DNA of 20,058 nucleotides from a virus (lineage: Duplodnaviria > Heunggongvirae > Uroviricota > Caudoviricetes): IMG/VR virus record IMGVR_UViG_2617270985_000008; one strand, written 5' to 3'. This document shows, one piece after another, positions 2,893 to 20,058 of this stretch. The notes beneath the pieces were generated by a model. It worked only from the letters and a program-made list of their open reading frames with translations, ran no database searches and was not told the origin of the DNA. Made by a program: the position numbers and the translations under genes. Positions within the stretch are counted from its first letter, which is position 1. Each line of letters starts with the position of its first letter.

Positions 2893-4032
2893 TCAGCTGC
2901 AAATTTCGTTGTTGCTGCATGTTATCTCTTCAAGTGCAGCGGCGTTATAATCAACGGAATGATCAACCTGTGATGTAGGTCTGCCAAAAAATTCAACCCC
3001 TGACATAATCATGTTGCCGATATTCTCTCGCTGTTTATCACTGAGCCTGTCCCACCACTCAGGGGATGAATATGTATTTTCGGCCTTTGTGAAGAAAAAA
3101 TACAGAAGGGTATTGAACATCCTGTTAGCTGGGATCTTAATTAGTGTCCGTATAAAACGTCTGATAATTGTTGAAGTTCTCAGCCAACTGAACACTACAT
3201 ATCCCTTACCTCCGCAGGAAAAAGCATTGAAACATACTTGTTCCGCCGACACTGTAAGATCGCTCAAATCCTGAATTTTGGTCCCATCGAAATCCCTCTC
3301 CGGTGAAAGAATTGACGAAACTACAATTGGTAAAGGCTCTGCAAAAGTGAAGATAACACTTTCAATTTCTGAAAATTGCCTGCTAAGTAGGATGCGGTCG
3401 AGGCTAGTTTTAAGATTATTTAATTCAATTATTGCTGCATTTAAGCCACTTTGGTGCTGGTCGATTAATTTCTGAATATAATACTGTTCAACTTGTAGCT
3501 TTCCTTTATCGGCATTTTTAGCAAAATCAGAAGATAGCACTCCCCCTTCTTTGGCATAAATTTCTTTAGACAATGAACGAAACATTAAGGCAAAGCACTG
3601 CTCGTCCGTGCCTGTAAATTTTTCGTTCTCTAGGCATGAAAATAAGATTCTGTCATGAACTGCACAAAATCCTGTAAAAGTGGATGCCTGATTGATACCG
3701 ATCTTCTCGGGAAGCCATTTTCCGTTGTTTCTCATCAGGCTTGCTAAGTTCATTATCACCCCCATGACGTGATTGCTGGAGTCGGCGATCGCCTTAAGGC
3801 TACTGCTCTTAGATATCGTATGCGCCTGAACGATGCGTTTATCACAATCTTCGTGCATGGATGCTGGCGCATAACATGCCTTTCTCTGCGAGAGAGACTT
3901 TGAAAATTTCAGTGCCTCGGCTTTGGATACCGGAGTTTCACGATCTCGACCAAGATGGCACTTTTTATACTTAAGTCCTGAATTACACCAGCACTTATCA
4001 TTTCTTCCTAATTTCACTTTATTGTTTCCCAC
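2893..4032 (-). CDS. Hypothetical protein with N-terminal SEC-C zinc-binding motif (prophage cargo)
   Basis: 379-aa ORF in a markedly AT-rich segment between D and ogr. The N-terminus KLGRNDKCWCNSGLKYKKCH resembles the SecA C-terminal SEC-C metal-binding motif. No Walker A or other catalytic motif recognised. Start is GTG at 4032 (or GTG at 4017); no in-frame ATG before the motif. Confidence 0.7.
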   Translation of the reverse strand: MGNNKVKLGRNDKCWCNSGLKYKKCHLGRDRETPVSKAEALKFSKSLSQRKACYAPASMHEDCDKRIVQAHTISKSSSLKAIADSSNHVMGVIMNLASLMRNNGKWLPEKIGINQASTFTGFCAVHDRILFSCLENEKFTGTDEQCFALMFRSLSKEIYAKEGGVLSSDFAKNADKGKLQVEQYYIQKLIDQHQSGLNAAIIELNNLKTSLDRILLSRQFSEIESVIFTFAEPLPIVVSSILSPERDFDGTKIQDLSDLTVSAEQVCFNAFSCGGKGYVVFSWLRTSTIIRRFIRTLIKIPANRMFNTLLYFFFTKAENTYSSPEWWDRLSDKQRENIGNMIMSGVEFFGRPTSQVDHSVDYNAAALEEITCSNNEICS

Positions 4033-11370: not shown

Positions 11371-11421
11371 CTCTTAACCTTATAATATGTGTGGTCTGAA
11401 ATAATAATTAAGGAGATTATC

Positions 11422-11994
11422 GTGCTGTCTTACTTAATGGCAATTCACTTTGTTTTATTTGGGGACTCTACTAATTTAAAAAACTTCTGGAAATATGAAG
11501 TAATTCGGCGGAAACGTATGGATATCTGGAGGCTTTTAAGAGAGAAAAAACAGCGTAACCGGAATTTCCTTTTCTGGTGGCGGTTGGCTAACGAAATGTA
11601 TATTAATGGTAATAAATTACATAAGAAAGCAGCCAAAAAGTTAAACAGTAAAATAATTAACAAATTTGGTTGTGAAATTGGATTGGGCGCAAATATTGGA
11701 AAAGGGTTAACAATTCCCCATCATGCTGGAATTGTTGTTCATTTTGCTGTTGATGCTGGTGAAAATCTGGTGTTACGACAGAATACTACCATTGGACAGA
11801 TAGATGGTGACATGCCTGGTTCAAGAGTAAAAATTGGTAGTAACGTTGATATCGGAGCTAATTGTTGCATCATTGGATTATCACGTAAAATTGGGGATAA
11901 TGTAAAAATAGGTGCAATGTCTTTTATAAATAAAGATATACCATCGAACTGCACATATATAACTAAAAAGAGCGGTGTTGTATTGTATAAATAG
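11422..11994 (+). CDS. Hexapeptide-repeat (left-handed beta-helix) acetyltransferase, serine acetyltransferase/WcaB-like
   Basis: AT-rich ORF; C-terminal half has hexapeptide repeats (IGANIGKGLTIPHHAGIVV…IGSNVDIGANCCIIG…IGDNVKIGAMSFI). Start set at GTG 11422 with AAGGAG 6 nt upstream; the track ORF begins at 11389 without an RBS. Confidence 0.8.
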   Translation: MLSYLMAIHFVLFGDSTNLKNFWKYEVIRRKRMDIWRLLREKKQRNRNFLFWWRLANEMYINGNKLHKKAAKKLNSKIINKFGCEIGLGANIGKGLTIPHHAGIVVHFAVDAGENLVLRQNTTIGQIDGDMPGSRVKIGSNVDIGANCCIIGLSRKIGDNVKIGAMSFINKDIPSNCTYITKKSGVVLYK

Positions 11995-12653: not shown

Positions 12654-13976
12654 TTACGGTGTTTTCTTCGTTAACTCCAGACCTGTGGCCCCCTGCATAT
12701 TATCTGTCAGGGCGGTCAGCCGACCTTTTGAAGCCAGATTAACTGACGATACTGCTGTCCCATCTGACGGTAACGCCCCGATCTCTGATGCTGTTGGCTT
12801 ATTCCTGGAGTTATAGTCCCTTCGCCAGCCAGGAGCATAAGCATCACCATGATTAATATAAGTAAATTGAGCATTAGGGATGCCTTCACCGCTGGATGTA
12901 CTCGGTGTGGTAATGCGTATGGTCATTGCGCCGCGGGTGCCAATAACTTCCACAACAGCACCTGCAAGACAAATACTTCCGCAACCTGTATCTGTAATGA
13001 CCTTATTATTTGCATAAGCCCATGAGCCTTTGCACATCCAGTAAGGATGGTTAAATGCCCCCTGACTCTCTAGCCAAAAAATCAACTGCGCAGTTGTCCA
13101 TGCTTCACTATCTCCACCAATATTCAGCTCTGCACTATATGCACGGCAGGCACCGATATTTTTCGTAAAGGTGTCTTTATCAGAGATATCCTCACCATTC
13201 TTAGCTTTCTGCAGACGTTTTTCAGCATTGTCATAGGCAGCTTTTACTGCATTTGATGTTGCCGCCAGCGTTTCAGATGTACTGTTGGTTGCACTACTAA
13301 GCTGGACAAGGCCTTTTCGCGCTGTTGTGGCATCCTGCGCTGTATATTTTCCGTTAGCAAGATCATACGCGACCTTAACCGCTTTCGGCGTTGCAGCCAG
13401 CGTTTCAGAATCGCTGTTAGTGGCGCTACTGAGTTGAACAAAGCCTTTTGCGGTCAGCGAGGCATCCGGGTGACATCGTGACTGTTCATGCTCTTTCAGT
13501 TTGTTATCCACGTAATCCACTGTGGCCATCACCATGGTGTTATCCACGGTAAGCGCCACAGTGGCAGTGCTGGATACGGTCAGAATGGTGCGAAATGTTT
13601 GTGCACGTCCGGACCCTTCGGCAACGGCTGGCTTGTAACTTTCGGCAGTATTGCCCACCGCGATTAAATCGCCGTGCTCATCAAACACACCAATTTCCCG
13701 GATCCAGAATCCGCCCGTTTCTGGAGGAATAACCAGCTCCGCAATAATGCGGTTCTGATGTGTTGCGTCCAGGATGACGCGATTAACAGTGTGTCGCCAC
13801 ACCTCATGCACCAGACGGGTCTGCTTACTGTCTGGTGTGGGCAACGCGCCGCCACCGTCGCCCACGGCCATATGAGTCAGGCGGACAGGCTTACCATCTG
13901 GCGCGGCTGCCTGAGCTAATTTTTTGGCACCTGTATCGGTGATAACGGTTTTAAATTTTCGTGTTGTGGTACTCAT
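12654..13976 (-). CDS. H: Tail fibre protein (P2 gpH-like)
   Basis: 440 aa; conserved gpH N-terminal domain (…VRLTHMAVGDGGG…RLVHEVWRH…AELVIPPETGGFWIREIG…ESYKP…) and duplicated QLSSATNS.SETLAAT motif; divergent C-terminal domain. Confidence 0.88.
   Translation of the reverse strand: MSTTTRKFKTVITDTGAKKLAQAAAPDGKPVRLTHMAVGDGGGALPTPDSKQTRLVHEVWRHTVNRVILDATHQNRIIAELVIPPETGGFWIREIGVFDEHGDLIAVGNTAESYKPAVAEGSGRAQTFRTILTVSSTATVALTVDNTMVMATVDYVDNKLKEHEQSRCHPDASLTAKGFVQLSSATNSDSETLAATPKAVKVAYDLANGKYTAQDATTARKGLVQLSSATNSTSETLAATSNAVKAAYDNAEKRLQKAKNGEDISDKDTFTKNIGACRAYSAELNIGGDSEAWTTAQLIFWLESQGAFNHPYWMCKGSWAYANNKVITDTGCGSICLAGAVVEVIGTRGAMTIRITTPSTSSGEGIPNAQFTYINHGDAYAPGWRRDYNSRNKPTASEIGALPSDGTAVSSVNLASKGRLTALTDNMQGATGLELTKKTP
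13230..13445 (-). repeat. Intragenic tandem repeat in the tail-fibre gene (two copies, 132-nt period)
   Basis: Peptide repeats GFVQLSSATNSDSETLAATPKAVKVAYD (aa 178-205) and GLVQLSSATNSTSETLAATSNAVKAAYD (aa 222-249); the DNA copies are visibly similar. Confidence 0.6.
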
Positions 13977-14509: not shown

Positions 14510-15257
14510 TGCGCCCACCTTCGCTGATGGTGAACGACTCACAGCGCGCCGCCTGTATGTCGCTGATGGCCATATTCTGTGTGGGTTCGATTATCTCCAC
14601 GCGTTGCACACCGTGCACATGCAGTGCGGCAGCAATGGCGGACAACGCCACGTCCTGACCGATAAGCCCCTGCTCAGCCAGCCACTTCCTGAACGACGAT
14701 TCAGCCGCCGCCAGAATAGGTTCGGATTCCGGGCCGGGGTAAAAGTACAGTTTTGCATTCAGCCGCCATGTCACGATTCTGGCGCTCTGTACCGTCAGGC
14801 GGTCGGCCACCGGGCGGGTATCCTCTGCATTCAGAACGGCGCGAACGGTATTAAGCAACGCCTCCGTTGCTGTGCCGTCGCCTTCAGTGGACAGGATGGA
14901 AACCGTCACATTTGCCGGAGACGGACTGATAGCCCGCGCATCACGCACCAGACCGCTGGCGCTGCGGGCAAAATACTCGTATGCACCTGACGGGCCAGCA
15001 ACACTCAGGCCATCGTACGCCCGCTGCGCCCGCAGTCTCAGCGAGGTGTCACTTTCCATCACTGCGTCGGTGGTATCCGTTGCCGGAGTGATGGTCAGGC
15101 GCTTTGTGTTCATATTGCCCGCGAGGTTGTCCAGGTCTGTCCCGGCGCTGTGGCTTAACATGCAGGCGCGTGCCCCCTCATTGACCCGCTGGCGTAACGA
15201 GCGTTTCACGGTTATGGAGTTCTGATGAGCAGAAAAAATAAAAAAGTGCGCATGAGT
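14502..15257 (-). pseudogene. J: Baseplate assembly protein gpJ, 5'-truncated remnant
   Basis: Translation (…RQRVNEGARA…MESDTSLRLRAQRAYDGLSVAG…RPVADRLTVQSA…YFYPGPESEPI…HVHGVQRVE…) matches roughly the C-terminal 220 aa of gpJ. Homology stops near 15210-15250, where the opposite-strand Q start abuts; about 85 N-terminal codons are missing. Confidence 0.75.
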
Positions 15258-15959
15258 TCACGCATTGATCTCGCTGATGCGCTCAGGAAAGAATCATCGC
15301 TCAGTGCATTCACATTTGATGGTCCTTATCGCCTGACCGGGCATGACCTGCTGGACAATATGTACTGTGCTGATAACGGGCGGTGGTATGAAACCCCGGT
15401 GGACTGGTACGGTCTGGCAAGAGCCGCCCGGCAAACGTCCTGGCATCAGTCTGCGCTTTACTTTAAGCGCAATGTATTGCTCGGTTGCTACATCCCGCAC
15501 CCGCTGCTTTCCCGGCAGGATTTCTCGGCGCTGGCGCTGGACTGGTTTGTGTTCGGTAACGCATTCCTTGAGCTTCGAAGCAATATGCTCGGCGAACCGC
15601 TTAAATTACGGCACGCCCTGGCGAAATACATGCGACGCGGAAGCGATCTTGAATCATGGTGGTATGTGCAGGATGGCAAGGATGCGTTTCAGTTTCGCCC
15701 AGGCAAAGTGTGCCACCTGATGAATCCGGACATTAACCAGGAAATCTACGGCATGCCGGAATATCTCGGCGCATTACTCTCGGCCAGCCTGTCTCATTCG
15801 GCGGACATGTTCAGAAAACTGTATTACGACAACGGATCCCACGCCGGGTGCATCATCTACATCGGTGCAGCGCAGGTAAACCGCGAAAGCATGGACTCCC
15901 TGAAAGAAACGCTACAGGGTGCGCGTGGTGGTGGTGCGTTTCACGTCCTCTGGAGGTGA
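15225..15959 (+). pseudogene. Q: Portal protein gpQ, 3'-truncated remnant
   Basis: 244-aa ORF with portal motifs (…NGRWYE…YFKRNVL…IPHPLLS.QDF…FGNAFLE…DINQEIYGMPEYL…YYDNGSHAG…) corresponding to roughly the N-terminal 70% of a P2-type portal; ends in unrelated sequence. Confidence 0.75.
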
Positions 15960-17101: not shown

Positions 17102-17305
17102 TTAGCTGTTAGCCAAAGCGTCTTTTAACATCGCCACAAGGTTTACTTCAGGCTTTTCCATTTTGGCGCGTTTGGGGCGGATAATAATTCGACCGTCAGC
17201 CAACATCTTTTTGCATGTATTAAGAGGGATACCTGTTATCTCTGCATATTTCTGCAGGGATACATAGGGGGCATTCACATTGATATTGATGGTTATACCT
17301 GACAT
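17102..17305 (-). CDS. Cox/Apl-like small DNA-binding protein (putative excisionase/regulator)
   Basis: 67 aa; the segment PYVSLQKYAEITGIPLNTCKKMLADGRI resembles the HTH region of P2 Cox (PYQEFAKLIGKSTGAVRRMIDKGKLP); position in the early operon fits. Confidence 0.55.
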   Translation of the reverse strand: MSGITININVNAPYVSLQKYAEITGIPLNTCKKMLADGRIIIRPKRAKMEKPEVNLVAMLKDALANS

Positions 17306-17321: not shown

Positions 17322-17528
17322 TCAGGAAGATTTGTTTTGTTCTTTCTGGGTTAGCTCTAGGCCGCGAAGGAAGATCATGCGCGCCATGTTAGAGGATGAG
17401 CGTTGTTCTTTAGCTGCCATTTCATCAATGACGGCTCGCTCCTCGAGGGACAGCCGAAGTGCCAGTCTTGGACCTGTGGCGGTGTTACGCGGAATGCGTG
17501 ATCTGGTATCGTGAAGAACTTGTTTCAT
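17322..17528 (-). CDS. Ribbon-helix-helix (Arc/CopG-like) DNA-binding protein, first gene of the leftward early operon
   Basis: 68 aa; RLALRLSLEERAVIDEMAAKEQRSSSNMARMIFLRGLE fits a beta-strand/helix/helix RHH fold; divergent from the XRE repressor across a 75-bp control region. Confidence 0.5.
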   Translation of the reverse strand: MKQVLHDTRSRIPRNTATGPRLALRLSLEERAVIDEMAAKEQRSSSNMARMIFLRGLELTQKEQNKSS

Positions 17529-17570
17529 AGTGGTATATTGTGATCATCTAATAGCTCGTGAAATCATTTT

Positions 17571-17588
17571 GGTATCAAAAAAGATACC
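17571..17588. promoter_or_regulatory. Candidate operator: perfect inverted repeat GGTATC-AAAAAA-GATACC in the divergent control region
   Basis: Lies in the 75-bp interval between the RHH and repressor start codons; a further GGTATA half-site at 17532-17537 and a TGATCA palindrome at 17541-17546. Confidence 0.4.
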
Positions 17589-17603: not shown

Positions 17604-18008
17604 ATGAAAAATGATATTGGTCAGCGGTTGCGTGAGGAAAGGGAAAGATTGGGACTTAGTCAAGTTGCCATGAGCGACATTGGTGGAGTCAAAAAGCTAA
17701 CTCAGCTTAGATATGAGAAAGGAGATAGCTTTCCTGATGCTGCGTATTTGGCAGCGCTGTCTCGTTTTGGCCTTGATGTTCAGTATGTTGTGTTGGGAAT
17801 TCACTCACCTGAAACTTATAACGATGATGAGCAGGAGTTGATTACTCGCTTTCGAGCAGCTTCGTTAGATGTGAAAAACGCGGTGATCGGGGCTTTAAAA
17901 GGTGCGATCAGTGAAAAGGAAACTCAGCCATCAGGACGTGAGTTAAATATTTCTGGTGGTAATAACCGTATCGCTGGTCGTGACTATAACGAAACTAAGG
18001 GTAGGTGA
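17604..18008 (+). CDS. XRE-family helix-turn-helix repressor (P2 C / CI-like immunity repressor)
   Basis: 134 aa; N-terminal IGQRLREERERLGLSQVAMSD…YEKG is a canonical HTH_XRE; first gene of the operon ending in int, as in P2 (C-int). The C-terminus carries the GGNNRIAGRDYNE motif. Confidence 0.75.
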   Translation: MKNDIGQRLREERERLGLSQVAMSDIGGVKKLTQLRYEKGDSFPDAAYLAALSRFGLDVQYVVLGIHSPETYNDDEQELITRFRAASLDVKNAVIGALKGAISEKETQPSGRELNISGGNNRIAGRDYNETKGR

Positions 18009-18023
18009 TAGTAGGGAGGTGAC

Positions 18024-18674
18024 ATGGCCGTCAACTCAAACGGTTCAAACAATCGCGTTGCTGGGCGTGATTTTCACGAAAAGAAAATTCAGATAGAGCG
18101 ATATGATGGTTCTCATACCGTCAATATCGCAATCCCTTCGAATAATGATGATGACGATCGCCCTTTGCTTAAGGCTCAGCGTAAGGAGCTAAATAGCTTG
18201 GTTGCTGCTATTGCAGAAGCTAGCAATACTGAAGCGTTTATTATTTGGCAAAAAGTACATGCGGAGATTGGTGTAGCTGGTATTGATGATATGACAGTAA
18301 ATCAATATAAAACAGCGGAGAGTTTTCTGCATGCAATGCTTGAGCGATGTAAAGATCATGATGCCTGTAAGACTCTTGTAAGTTTATTACTACGTAACAG
18401 TGAAGACTGTGGACTTCGACAAAAACTTCTGCGGTATTGCCATATCAATTTCGGTACAGGACGTTTAAACGATCTTACTCGTTCTCAGTTACAGTCTGCA
18501 TTGTCGTGGTTAGAGCAACAATCGGCATCAAGTCACACAGAGAGTTCGGCCTTACCAGAAGTTCGACTTCGTGCTTCAGAATTAATCCGACTTTATCCAA
18601 AAGAAATAATATTCTTTATCTGCGTAGGGGTTTTGGTAGGCGGTGCCATTTCTAGGGTGTTTTTTAATTTGTAA
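18024..18674 (+). CDS. Hypothetical tail-anchored membrane protein (216 aa) sharing an N-terminal motif with the repressor C-terminus
   Basis: Strong SD GGGAGG 4 nt before the ATG; N-terminus NGSNNRVAGRDFHE repeats the repressor C-terminal motif; C-terminal TM helix IIFFICVGVLVGGAI. Same reading frame as the repressor, separated by TGA-TAG-TAG. Confidence 0.6.
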   Translation: MAVNSNGSNNRVAGRDFHEKKIQIERYDGSHTVNIAIPSNNDDDDRPLLKAQRKELNSLVAAIAEASNTEAFIIWQKVHAEIGVAGIDDMTVNQYKTAESFLHAMLERCKDHDACKTLVSLLLRNSEDCGLRQKLLRYCHINFGTGRLNDLTRSQLQSALSWLEQQSASSHTESSALPEVRLRASELIRLYPKEIIFFICVGVLVGGAISRVFFNL

Positions 18675-18703
18675 TCTTACTTGAGCTAAATTGAGGTAAT
18701 GAT

Positions 18704-19051
18704 ATGAAAGTAAAAAAGGTTCAACTATTAGTTACTTTTTTATCTATGTTTTCTTTTTCCGCCGTCGCAATGCCTTTTAAAACTATTGAACGTGAGAGTT
18801 TCAATGGGGTATGGCCATTTAATACTGATGAGGTTCAATTACAGTGTCTTGATGGTAATCCTTATGTGATGAATTTTGACGATAATAAGTTATATGCGCT
18901 TACAGGTTTAGCTCGAATAAAAGGTAAAACATTTGGTGCGTTACCGTTAGATAACAATAATCCATTTTGGCTAGATAATGATGCCGCCCCAGGGTTAAAA
19001 AAGAGTCTGGGGGATGTCACTAAGGCTGCATTTGATTTATGTGATAAGTAA
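18704..19051 (+). CDS. Hypothetical secreted/periplasmic protein (115 aa, signal peptide)
   Basis: MKVKKVQLLVTFLSMFSFSAVA signal peptide; mature protein with two Cys (possible disulfide); SD GAGG 7 nt upstream; AT-rich. Confidence 0.6.
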   Translation: MKVKKVQLLVTFLSMFSFSAVAMPFKTIERESFNGVWPFNTDEVQLQCLDGNPYVMNFDDNKLYALTGLARIKGKTFGALPLDNNNPFWLDNDAAPGLKKSLGDVTKAAFDLCDK

Positions 19052-19056
19052 CTAAA

Positions 19057-20058
19057 ATGTCGGTTCGTAAGATTCCATCAGGTAAATGGCTTTGCGAATG
19101 TTATCCCTACGGGGCATCGGGAAAACGCATTCGTAAACAGTTTGCGACAAAAAGTGAGGCGCTCTCTTATGAGCGCCGTTTAATGAATAGTAGAGTTGGA
19201 GACGAGTTTCAAGATGGTTCTGGTCCTCGTCTTTCTGAGTTGATTGCTCGTTGGTTTGAGATGTACGGTAAAACCTTGTCCTCTGGTGCAGAGCGCAAAG
19301 TCAAACTTGAGGCGATTTGTTCCAGGCTGGGGGATCCATTTGCTTCTCAGTTTGACAAAAATATGTTTGCTACTTATCGGGAAAGAAGGCTATCAGGAGA
19401 ATGGAATCCCAAGGGGAAGAAAAAACTTAGTGAAGCAACCGTTAATCGCGAGCAGTCATATCTACATGCTGTTTTTGCCGAACTGAAGCGCCTTGGGGAG
19501 TGGTCTGGTGAAAACCCCCTGACTGGTATTCGCAAGTTTCGTGAGGAAGAAAAGGAACTGGCGTTTCTGTATGTAGATGAGATTGAACGCCTTCTGATTG
19601 CGTGTGATGAGTCACGGAATAAAGATTTGGGGGTTGTTGTCCGTATTGGGCTTGCGACTGGTGCTCGGTGGAGTGAAGCTGAAGGATTAAAGCAATCTCA
19701 AGTACTGCCCGGTCGAATCACATTTGTTAAAACTAAAGGAAAGAAGAACCGCACTGTACCGATTTCACCTCAATTGCAGGCTATGCTTCCTCAAAAACGA
19801 GGAGCGCTATTTTCACCATGTTATGAGGCTTTTGACGCTGCAATTAAGAGAGCGAAGATCGAGCTTCCTGATGGGCAATTAACTCATGTGCTACGTCACA
19901 CGTTTGCCAGTCATTTTATGATGCGGGGCGGAAATATTCTTGTGTTGCAAAAAATACTGGGGCATAGCGATATAAAAATGACTATGCGTTATGCGCATTT
20001 TGCTCCAGGTCATTTAGAGGCTGCTGTTGAATTGAACCCTTTTGACAATAGAGGGTAA
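19057..20058 (+). CDS. int: Tyrosine recombinase, P2-type phage integrase
   Basis: 333 aa; matches to P2 Int throughout (GKRIRKQF.TKSEA…, RLSEL, GLATGARW.EA, ITFVKTKGKKNRTVPIS, HVLRHTFASHFMMRGGNILVLQKILGHSDIKMTMRYAHFAP). The window ends at its TAA. Confidence 0.9.
   Translation: MSVRKIPSGKWLCECYPYGASGKRIRKQFATKSEALSYERRLMNSRVGDEFQDGSGPRLSELIARWFEMYGKTLSSGAERKVKLEAICSRLGDPFASQFDKNMFATYRERRLSGEWNPKGKKKLSEATVNREQSYLHAVFAELKRLGEWSGENPLTGIRKFREEEKELAFLYVDEIERLLIACDESRNKDLGVVVRIGLATGARWSEAEGLKQSQVLPGRITFVKTKGKKNRTVPISPQLQAMLPQKRGALFSPCYEAFDAAIKRAKIELPDGQLTHVLRHTFASHFMMRGGNILVLQKILGHSDIKMTMRYAHFAPGHLEAAVELNPFDNRG

Follow-up and report, generated by a model that had tools for sequence, protein, structure and literature searches.

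Matched terminal peptides of a prophage repressor and an adjacent membrane-anchored protein suggest that the lysogeny switch is linked to the cell membrane

In phage lambda, accessory genes that include a membrane protein (rexA and rexB, and also sieB) lie directly after the repressor gene cI in the maintenance operon and have a proposed role in the lysogeny switch or in exclusion. In amyloid signalling (fungal HET-S/NWD2 and bacterial BASS1-11), a motif at the C-terminus of one protein recurs at the N-terminus of the product of the adjacent gene. Here, we describe a locus that resembles both arrangements in part. It lies in a 20,058-nucleotide (nt) stretch of a Caudoviricetes virus (IMG/VR record IMGVR_UViG_2617270985_000008; the whole stretch is referred to below as the window), where the + strand gene of an XRE-type immunity repressor of 134 amino acids (aa; 17604..18008) is followed by the gene of a membrane-anchored partner protein of 216 aa (18024..18674, + strand), and the C-terminal tail of the repressor resembles the N-terminal head of the partner. 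Because the tail and head copies change together across many unrelated temperate phages, these matched terminal peptides suggest an undescribed physical link from the lysogeny switch to the cell membrane. The pairing is real, widespread and apparently unreported, and the function proposed for it is read here from sequence; in the literature searched on BcepMu, KS10, B3, Flk prophages, Xuanwuvirus, repressor-membrane protein pairs and amyloid motifs, we did not find it described.

How close is the locus to the systems already known? The preprint by Dyrka et al. places BASS1-10 on adjacent-gene pairs as bacterial amyloid-signalling motifs of about 25 aa in which Q, N, G, V and I are over-represented and K, P and L are scarce, and BASS11 belongs to Bab/Agp, an abortive-infection pair in a prophage defence island of E. 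coli ECOR25. The locus shares with these pairs the position of the motif at the C-terminus of one product and the N-terminus of the next, copies that resemble their own pair mate more than the copies of other pairs (by permutation tests that ignore kinship), and a G/N-rich, K/P/L-poor motif that is unstructured in the monomer; Bab/Agp is also prophage-borne. However, the aligned core is about 17-22 aa long here and is enriched in G, N and V but not in Q or I. Its carriers are a helix-turn-helix (HTH) repressor and a bitopic membrane protein, whereas those of BASS motifs are a sensor and an immune or cell-death effector, and the outcome would be control of the lysogeny switch rather than regulated cell death. 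Membership in amyloid signalling seems unlikely to us, and the locus is not treated as such.

The likeness to lambda cI-rexAB, in which genes expressed in the lysogen follow the repressor, is one of logic only, with no sequence relationship, and we know of no common terminal peptide in lambda CI and the Rex proteins. Likewise by logic only, the locus recalls type II antitoxins, in which a DNA-binding autoregulator with a disordered tail is encoded first and is tightly coupled to a partner encoded second. To our knowledge, tail-head sequence mimicry is no feature of type II toxin-antitoxin (TA) systems; moreover, Pfam, NCBIfam and PADLOC assign the downstream partner to no toxin family, and the weak matches to MqsA and HipB cover the HTH of the repressor only. 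The PADLOC search matched just this HTH region (RmrA models) and returned nothing for the 216-aa protein or the 115-aa protein encoded after it.

The repressor ends in ...NISGGNNRIAGRDYNETKGR and the 216-aa open reading frame (ORF) begins with MAVNSNGSNNRVAGRDFHEKK. The tail, residues 107-134 (17922..18005), contains the motif core ELNISGGNNRIAGRDYNETKGR, and the head comprises residues 1-38 of the partner, MAVNSNGSNNRVAGRDFHEKKIQIERYDGSHTVNIAIPS (18024..18137). In the DNA, the motif forms a direct repeat (family D1) with copies at 17961-17994 in the tail and 18048-18081 in the head, each of 34 nt, 74% identical and 87 nt apart. Direct reading of the junction (18006..18019, + strand) gives the stops TGA at 18006, TAG at 18009 and TAG at 18012, overlapped by a Shine-Dalgarno sequence, GGGAGG at 18014-18019, which lies 4 bases ahead of the ATG at 18024; the two start coordinates, 17604 and 18024, are multiples of 3, which puts both ORFs in one reading frame. 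In all these respects, namely the coordinates, the shared peptide motif, the stops, the GGGAGG and the common frame, the original prediction agrees with the sequence as read.

The next question is whether this resemblance is peculiar to the window or belongs to a wider group of phages. A homologue search with the 216-aa protein returned 194 sequences, of which 120 were listed, nearly all of 203-216 aa and from Escherichia, Klebsiella, Serratia, Erwinia, Enterobacter, Raoultella and others; the head motif stands at the start of all 120. In the Klebsiella and Erwinia loci, the upstream repressor ends in INVSGQGNRVAGRDYNENKK or INVSGSGQRVAGRDYHEGKK. A scan of one genome per species yielded ten loci (Izhakiella, Mixta, Hafnia, Serratia, Arsenophonus and others), and at every intact one of them, the ORF just upstream of the gene for the Flk_N-type partner ends in the motif, 4-6 residues from the stop; the decayed copy in Symbiopectobacterium has lost the head, and its int is broken. 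A scan of viral contigs with the repressor alignment added about 50 further diverse loci, in which, as in Klebsiella and Erwinia, an upstream XRE ORF carries the motif 4-6 residues ahead of its stop. The tail-head match was found in nearly every intact relative, in P2-like prophages of Enterobacterales as well as in the transposable phages BcepMu, KS10 and Pseudomonas B3. Its presence in all 120 listed homologues and in nearly every intact upstream ORF takes the motif beyond chance, a point on which the original prediction had kept open that it might be a common low-complexity feature of unrelated XRE proteins.

The motif occurs in at least 14 sequence flavours, and the tail and head of one locus share a flavour. 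Three loci with tails other than the AGRD flavour were fetched and turned out to be BcepMu-like transposable prophages with rve transposase, AAA_22, holin and SLT genes; in each of them, the next gene starts with the matching flavour. Examples of repressor tails and partner heads are IFNGDISGQFAGNQIIN and EFNGTAQGQFSSRDIIN in Pectobacterium, QIINGSVNGQISAGNIYN and QNFNDRVEQVAGENIIN in Gilliamella, and QQFNGPVGTVTSGDVVN and QQFHDRVHQVAAGDIKN in P. aeruginosa. The corresponding peptides are EQVFHGSVGQAVKVEG and KQEFNKPVGQAIQAGE in BcepMu (gp17/gp18), MVASGSGITQVGSRVRI and MSASGFGIIQVAGDLSI in KS10 (gp13/gp12), and ISVTGDGNRTAGRDFHE and IEVTGSNNIVAGRDFIE in Pseudomonas B3 (ORF18/ORF20). A loose consensus, xQxFxGxVGxVAGxDIxN, is common to all flavours, and some heads contain two units 15 residues apart. 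The bodies that follow the heads vary: an Flk_N domain with a tail anchor, a protein with two transmembrane (TM) segments, a Zn-ribbon with a TM segment, or, in longer proteins, a coiled coil and a TM helix together with a periplasmic domain that is rich in Cys and weakly DUF1496-like. In every case, the head stands at the cytoplasmic end of a membrane protein. No Pfam model fell on the head region of ten head-bearing proteins, and a sequence profile search of the PDB with the motif gave chance matches only, with no chain carrying it.

The agreement in flavour was assessed by comparing cognate tail-head pairs with shuffled ones. For 43 dereplicated pairs, the cognate scores (local BLOSUM62) summed to 1774 versus 1157±71 after shuffling, a value that none of 20,000 shuffles reached; for 16 flavour representatives, the sums were 679 and 412±37, with 0 of 100,000 shuffles reaching the former, and kinship was ignored in both cases. 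The cognate head ranked first in 6 of these 16 representatives and first or second in 12. Since all flavours share the loose consensus, the tail-head match is a tendency and not a strict code. The co-variation of tail and head over at least 14 flavours supports the functional connection of the two proteins that had been proposed from the window.

The two copies in the window had been described as conserved in peptide but diverged at synonymous positions, and a codon count agrees with this, as only 4 of the 11 identical-residue positions with degenerate codons use the identical codon. Over 29 loci, the codon was identical at 116 of 277 identical residues (42%), a proportion that we judge, with no expectation computed, to be near the level of saturated synonymous sites. 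Because only 42% of the codons match, the resemblance appears to be maintained in the peptide rather than through recent gene conversion, as the proposal of selection on the peptide implied. Recent duplication or gene conversion, considered as a source of the repeat, was ruled out by this codon comparison.

The repressor consists of an HTH domain (residues 1-64), two helices (residues 74-105) and the tail. HTH_31 (E 8e-5) and HTH_3 (E 1.4e-3) match it with scores that are both under the Pfam gathering scores, and its PHROG matches are phrog_8 (E 2.5e-14) and phrog_4 (transcriptional regulator/repressor). An AlphaFold2 (AF2) model places helices at residues 5-64, 74-85 and 88-105, with a per-residue confidence (pLDDT) of >90 in the HTH and <50 in the tail. 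Neither the domain search nor the model revealed a C-terminal S24 peptidase of the LexA/CI self-cleavage type, the chain consisting of two helices and then the tail after the HTH; the route by which such small XRE repressors without a self-cleavage domain are switched off is not addressed in the literature searched. Relatives found by tblastn include BcepMu gp17, KS10 gp13 ('phage repressor') and the 'repressor' of Ps59, and B3 ORF18 is a homologue as well. The HTH, a helix with the pattern YRxAPLAVKAAALAALTAG and a Ser/Ala linker are common to the repressor homologues, whereas their tails differ.

In Candidatus Arsenophonus triatominarum (L017:3069-3966), the motif stands at the C-termini (…SNQRIAGRDYNETK and …SGQRIAGRDYNERK) of two tandem repressor-like ORFs of 128 aa and 89 aa, the latter with a truncated N-terminus; a single Flk_N gene with the head MNIDFKGHDSKIAGRDFEEN follows them.

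The partner protein is covered over its full length by phrog_5825 (E 1.2e-101). Precomputed Pfam data record PF27202 (Flk_N) for P0001, the representative of its cluster and 99% identical to it, and for almost every homologue; the local Pfam scan of the window protein did not return PF27202, and the assignment is made via the hit on P0001. The NCBIfam Flk model (NF007987/PRK10715) aligns residues 37-166 with positions 20-149 of its 339-position profile (E 9e-16). As the score of 58.1 bits is below the curated cut-off of 353 and the match is limited to residues 37-166, the sequence indicates a protein with an Flk_N unit that is no orthologue of Flk. The head, residues 1-38, lies outside the Flk match and has 12 invariant columns among 24 diverse homologues. 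In an AF2 model based on an alignment of 24 sequences, a helical domain at residues 46-172 (pLDDT about 90; about 18159..18539) is followed by a weak, variable linker and by a helix that covers a hydrophobic stretch (residues 192-215; 18597..18668), ahead of which YPKE is conserved; residues 1-38 have a pLDDT of <50 in the monomer. The single C-terminal helix noticed in the window is thus present in the model, and the hydrophobic C-terminus is kept across the aligned homologues. By analogy with the tail-anchor layout of Flk, as given in PMC13344023 and PMC6794478, the partner would have a C-terminal anchor and a cytoplasmic body.

Flk (Fluke/RflH), the regulator of the flagellar secretion switch in Salmonella and E. 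coli, is a described relative of this protein, with a homologous Flk_N unit, a C-terminal anchor and a cytoplasmic bulk, and it is thought to work by holding another protein's state (PMC13344023). A chromosomal Flk representative (P0330, 332 aa) and other Flk representatives align twice to the 216-aa protein, each time to its residues 35-166, so Flk consists of two tandem units. In contrast to Flk, with its about 330 aa, two units and chromosomal locus, the window protein is shorter, at 216 aa, has a single unit, is prophage-borne between repressor and int, and carries the head motif where the N-terminus of Flk is Pro/Gly-rich. The Red-beta C-terminal domain, the NinB C-terminal region and ORF6C-type phage adaptors resemble Flk_N at the level of the fold only (11-19% identity), a likeness that does not point to the binding target of the partner.

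What could maintain matching peptides at the ends of two different proteins? The motif lies at matching ends, is conserved, co-varies between tail and head, shows signs of upkeep at the peptide level and is unstructured in the monomer models, and its partners are membrane proteins with a cytoplasmic head. We favour the explanation, with a probability of roughly 0.55, that the repressor tail binds the partner head directly, probably strand to strand, and thereby couples the repressor to a membrane protein with its N-terminus inside the cell. Direct binding is favoured because the copies are conserved, terminal, unstructured and co-varying, the two genes are tightly coupled, and flavours differ within one host. 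The disordered tail and the disordered head would form a matched recognition pair, most likely through beta pairing of like segments, which would join the immunity repressor to a bitopic inner-membrane protein with a cytoplasmic N-terminus; in the window, this would be the tail-anchored protein with its helical Flk_N adaptor domain. Such a pair, probably made from one tightly coupled operon, could act as a portable immunity module of P2-like and BcepMu/B3-like phages. Binding would tie the availability or oligomeric state of the repressor to the membrane partner and so modulate the maintenance or release of repression. Control could run in either direction: the repressor may be altered by a partner that senses an envelope signal, or, like an antitoxin, it may itself silence a membrane effector. 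A further probable role of the tail is in self-association of the repressor, into which the heads may plug.

Several observations weigh against direct tail-head binding. The permutation tests take no account of the shared ancestry of linked genes, and owing to the loose common consensus, non-cognate scores are often high, so that the cognate head comes first in only 6 of 16 representatives. Tails also occur with no head-bearing gene within 2.5 kb (L087, L090, L091, L095 and L097), and because of these loci the tail must have a role of its own too. Finally, it would seem wasteful to co-express a repressor at equimolar levels with its own sequestering protein, unless binding is gated by a signal.

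The other explanations differ in what they make of the two termini. From the common frame in the window, which recurs at 16 of 35 distinct junctions, it could be imagined that the two genes are what is left of one ORF, or that read-through or re-initiation yields a membrane-tethered repressor; this proportion does not depart clearly from the 1/3 expected (p = 0.087). Junction gaps in the relatives range from -4 to 34 nt (exceptionally 84; median 15), with many ATGA overlaps, a spacer difference of 1 nt flips the frame between the close relatives L018 and L078, and in Erwinia a whole gene, that of YebY, is inserted between the repressor and Flk_N genes, with a 198-aa gene following. With three consecutive stops in the window arguing against read-through, no fusion of HTH to Flk_N among 141 cluster representatives (clusters at 50% identity), and an unremarkable junction RNA (folding z = 0.29, no Rfam match), this explanation is very improbable, and neither the meaning attached to the in-frame arrangement nor the idea of an ancestral ORF split in two found support. 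Read-through or fusion was ruled out as a candidate by the frame survey and the lack of fused relatives, and an RNA-level cause of the repeat by the folding value and the lack of an Rfam family at the junction. A third factor, either a host protease or adaptor recognising a degron or another phage protein, might instead read both tail and head without any mutual binding; both copies do resemble terminal degrons in being unstructured and at the very ends of their proteins, and some tails lack a head partner. However, different flavours occur in phages of one host, since B3 and the L021/L099 type both infect P. aeruginosa and BcepMu and KS10, which are co-resident in B. cenocepacia J2315 (PMC2628397), carry different ones. 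One host factor cannot read all of these, and because flavours differ among phages of one host species, recognition would lie within each pair; in addition, P2-like and BcepMu-like loci have the repressor-partner pair in common by Pfam and PHROG. A third factor is accordingly improbable, and the common protease put forward earlier is unlikely. Similarly doubtful is a parallel self-association, in which the motif oligomerises the repressor and, separately, the membrane protein, and the likeness reflects common origin only. This would account for tails without heads and for the generic consensus common to all flavours, but it gives no reason for the match to persist through at least 14 flavour changes with saturated synonymous sites.

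Two further explanations accept an interaction of the two proteins and give it a particular nature. In one, the repressor tail holds a membrane effector inactive like an antitoxin, and loss or titration of the repressor, by induction or heteroimmune attack, frees the effector for exclusion, abortive infection or lysis timing. As in type II TA systems, by general knowledge, a DNA-binding protein with a disordered tail comes first and a tightly coupled partner second; moreover, the partners are always membrane proteins, and the pair is intact in the deleted prophage of the window. We nevertheless regard this possibility as unlikely, given that PADLOC, Pfam and NCBIfam gave no match to a toxin or defence family, that similarity of an antitoxin tail to a toxin head is foreign to TA systems, and that Flk_N resembles protein-binding helical adaptors rather than pore formers. 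The other is amyloid-type signalling, a special case of direct pairing, with the head nucleating a cross-beta fold that templates the repressor tails as in BASS or HET-s and switches the repressor in an all-or-none manner. The layout, a motif of about 20 aa at the C-terminus and N-terminus of the products of adjacent genes, is that of the known pairs, the composition is similarly biased (G 2.3x, N 4.5x and V 1.3x up; K 0.39x, P 0.27x and L 0.09x down), both copies are unstructured as monomers, and the heads with two units 15 residues apart recall pseudo-repeats. Yet there is no enrichment of Q (0.93x) or I (0.86x), the AGRD flavour contains many charged residues, and domain and PADLOC searches found no NLR/STAND or TPR sensor and no Bell, HeLo, TIR or CHAT effector among the partners; nor are HTH or phage repressors named as motif carriers in the amyloid-motif literature searched. 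There is some chance that this explanation is correct, although a rather low one. A slightly more specific form of it, that phages have recruited an amyloid-signalling motif to the lysogeny switch and that the cytoplasmic head of a membrane sensor propagates its fold onto the repressor tails, is also unlikely in our view. If it were true, the repressor would be aggregated or re-organised in an SOS-independent, all-or-none and immunity-specific decision, and the flavours would be orthogonal codes that prevent cross-talk between co-resident prophages.

Should direct binding of tail and head be confirmed, this peptide 'handshake' between repressor and partner would provide a direct line from the lysogeny switch to the cell envelope and a testable route to SOS-independent induction, exclusion or addiction. 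The flavours resemble a further specificity code, added to that of the operators, and could explain the coexistence of related prophages, and if the pairing is amyloid-like, amyloid signalling would extend from the control of cell death to gene regulation. Experiments can begin at once, as about 10% of the complete E. coli genomes carry the pair and BcepMu, KS10 and B3, which have it too, are phages with a long history of study.

The pair is part of a longer run of genes on the + strand. After the partner gene comes the gene of a secreted protein of the YebY/DUF2511 family (18704..19051; 115 aa) and then, as the final gene of the run, a tyrosine integrase (19057..20058; Int_N E 5e-32, Phage_integrase E 2e-22). 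Terminator-like sites were not detected on the + strand between 17604 and 19057; because none separates the four genes, we infer that they form a single maintenance operon, which agrees with the earlier view of a cassette from the repressor to int; the pair sits in this lysogeny operon, between the repressor start and int. On the opposite strand, 75 bp from the repressor, lie an Arc-like ribbon-helix-helix gene (17322..17528, - strand; phrog_3431, E 1e-28), divergent from the repressor on the lytic side of the switch, and a Cox-like excisionase/repressor gene (17102..17305, - strand; phrog_575, E 1.2e-27); the BcepMu, KS10 and B3 records have an equal layout. Within the 75-bp gap, the perfect palindrome GGTATCAAAAAAGATACC at 17571-17588 is a likely operator, and GGTAT-containing repeats occur near it at 17525-17536 and 17564-17575.

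The 115-aa protein matches DUF2511 in Pfam (E 2.3e-6; 28.4 bits versus a cut-off of 21) and phrog_2950 and has a signal-peptide-like N-terminus; the third gene was thus correctly described as encoding a signal-peptide protein upstream of int. Its grouping with the repressor and the partner as a trio was not sustained. In Klebsiella, Hafnia and Symbiopectobacterium, the slot of the third gene holds unrelated genes, in Erwinia YebY precedes the Flk_N gene, and in Arsenophonus int directly follows the Flk_N gene; the 115-aa protein appears to be variable cargo outside the conserved pair. Frequent pseudogenisation of both genes in relatives had been named as a possible objection. For the 216-aa gene this is not the case, as truncated versions are a small minority (a main cluster of 555 members versus a few tens in truncated or partial clusters), while the 115-aa gene is replaced or absent.

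Escherichia phage 520873 (Peduoviridae, Xuanwuvirus) matches the 2-kb cassette at 98% identity, and the cassette is present in 525 of 5,426 complete E. coli genomes (about 10%, including O26, O103 and O111-type strains), with an identity of >=99% in 472 of the 525. In O26:H11 str. 11368, it lies in a prophage adjoining yecA, and its products are annotated there as 'helix-turn-helix domain-containing protein', 'membrane protein' (WP_000290352), 'DUF2511 domain-containing protein' and 'phage integrase'. The record of phage 520873 (L001, NC_049344) leaves the Flk_N and YebY genes unannotated; its Flk_N frame is recovered by tblastn in three pieces and its int is split into two coding sequences, which indicates sequencing errors or decay.

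In four viral contigs (L087 and L090-L092, about 2916-3221), the repressor has a G/N-rich tail, and what follows it is a headless protein of about 100 aa, in which a basic N-terminus and a TM segment are combined with a Cys-rich domain (C..DGK.Y..G..I......C.C). The same Cys-rich domain is found at the periplasmic end of long head-bearing partners such as BcepMu gp18.

Compared with the prophage of O26:H11 11368, that of the window has three internal deletions, whose junctions at 12668-12673, 15196-15210 and 15937-15941 show short overlaps of 5-15 nt. The first removed about 0.77 kb of a tail-fibre gene, the second about 10.8 kb from baseplate gene J to the end of the terminase gene, and the third about 6.5 kb from the middle of the portal gene to just past DUF4754, with the loss of gpA, ParM and others. 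For the junction at 15937, the only one searched, there was no alignment across it in the 5,426 complete E. coli genomes. The cassette of repressor, partner, YebY and int is intact in this defective remnant.

The prophage is integrated next to host yecA, and a 379-aa ORF at 2893-4032 (- strand) is annotated as 'YecA family protein' in O26:H11 and has no PHROG match. Two regions near this end are of note, 701-1003 and about 2012-2152: just outside the prophage end near pgsA lie tRNA-Gly(GCC), tRNA-Cys(GCA) and tRNA-Leu(TAA), and mapping of coordinates to the O26 record places a gene of a Hok/Gef-family toxin between ogr and the pgsA-side end. A gene at 11389-11994 (+ strand), between tail gene U and the tail-fibre assembly gene, is annotated as 'serine O-acetyltransferase' in O26:H11, matches phrog_2154 (unknown function) and is probably a moron.

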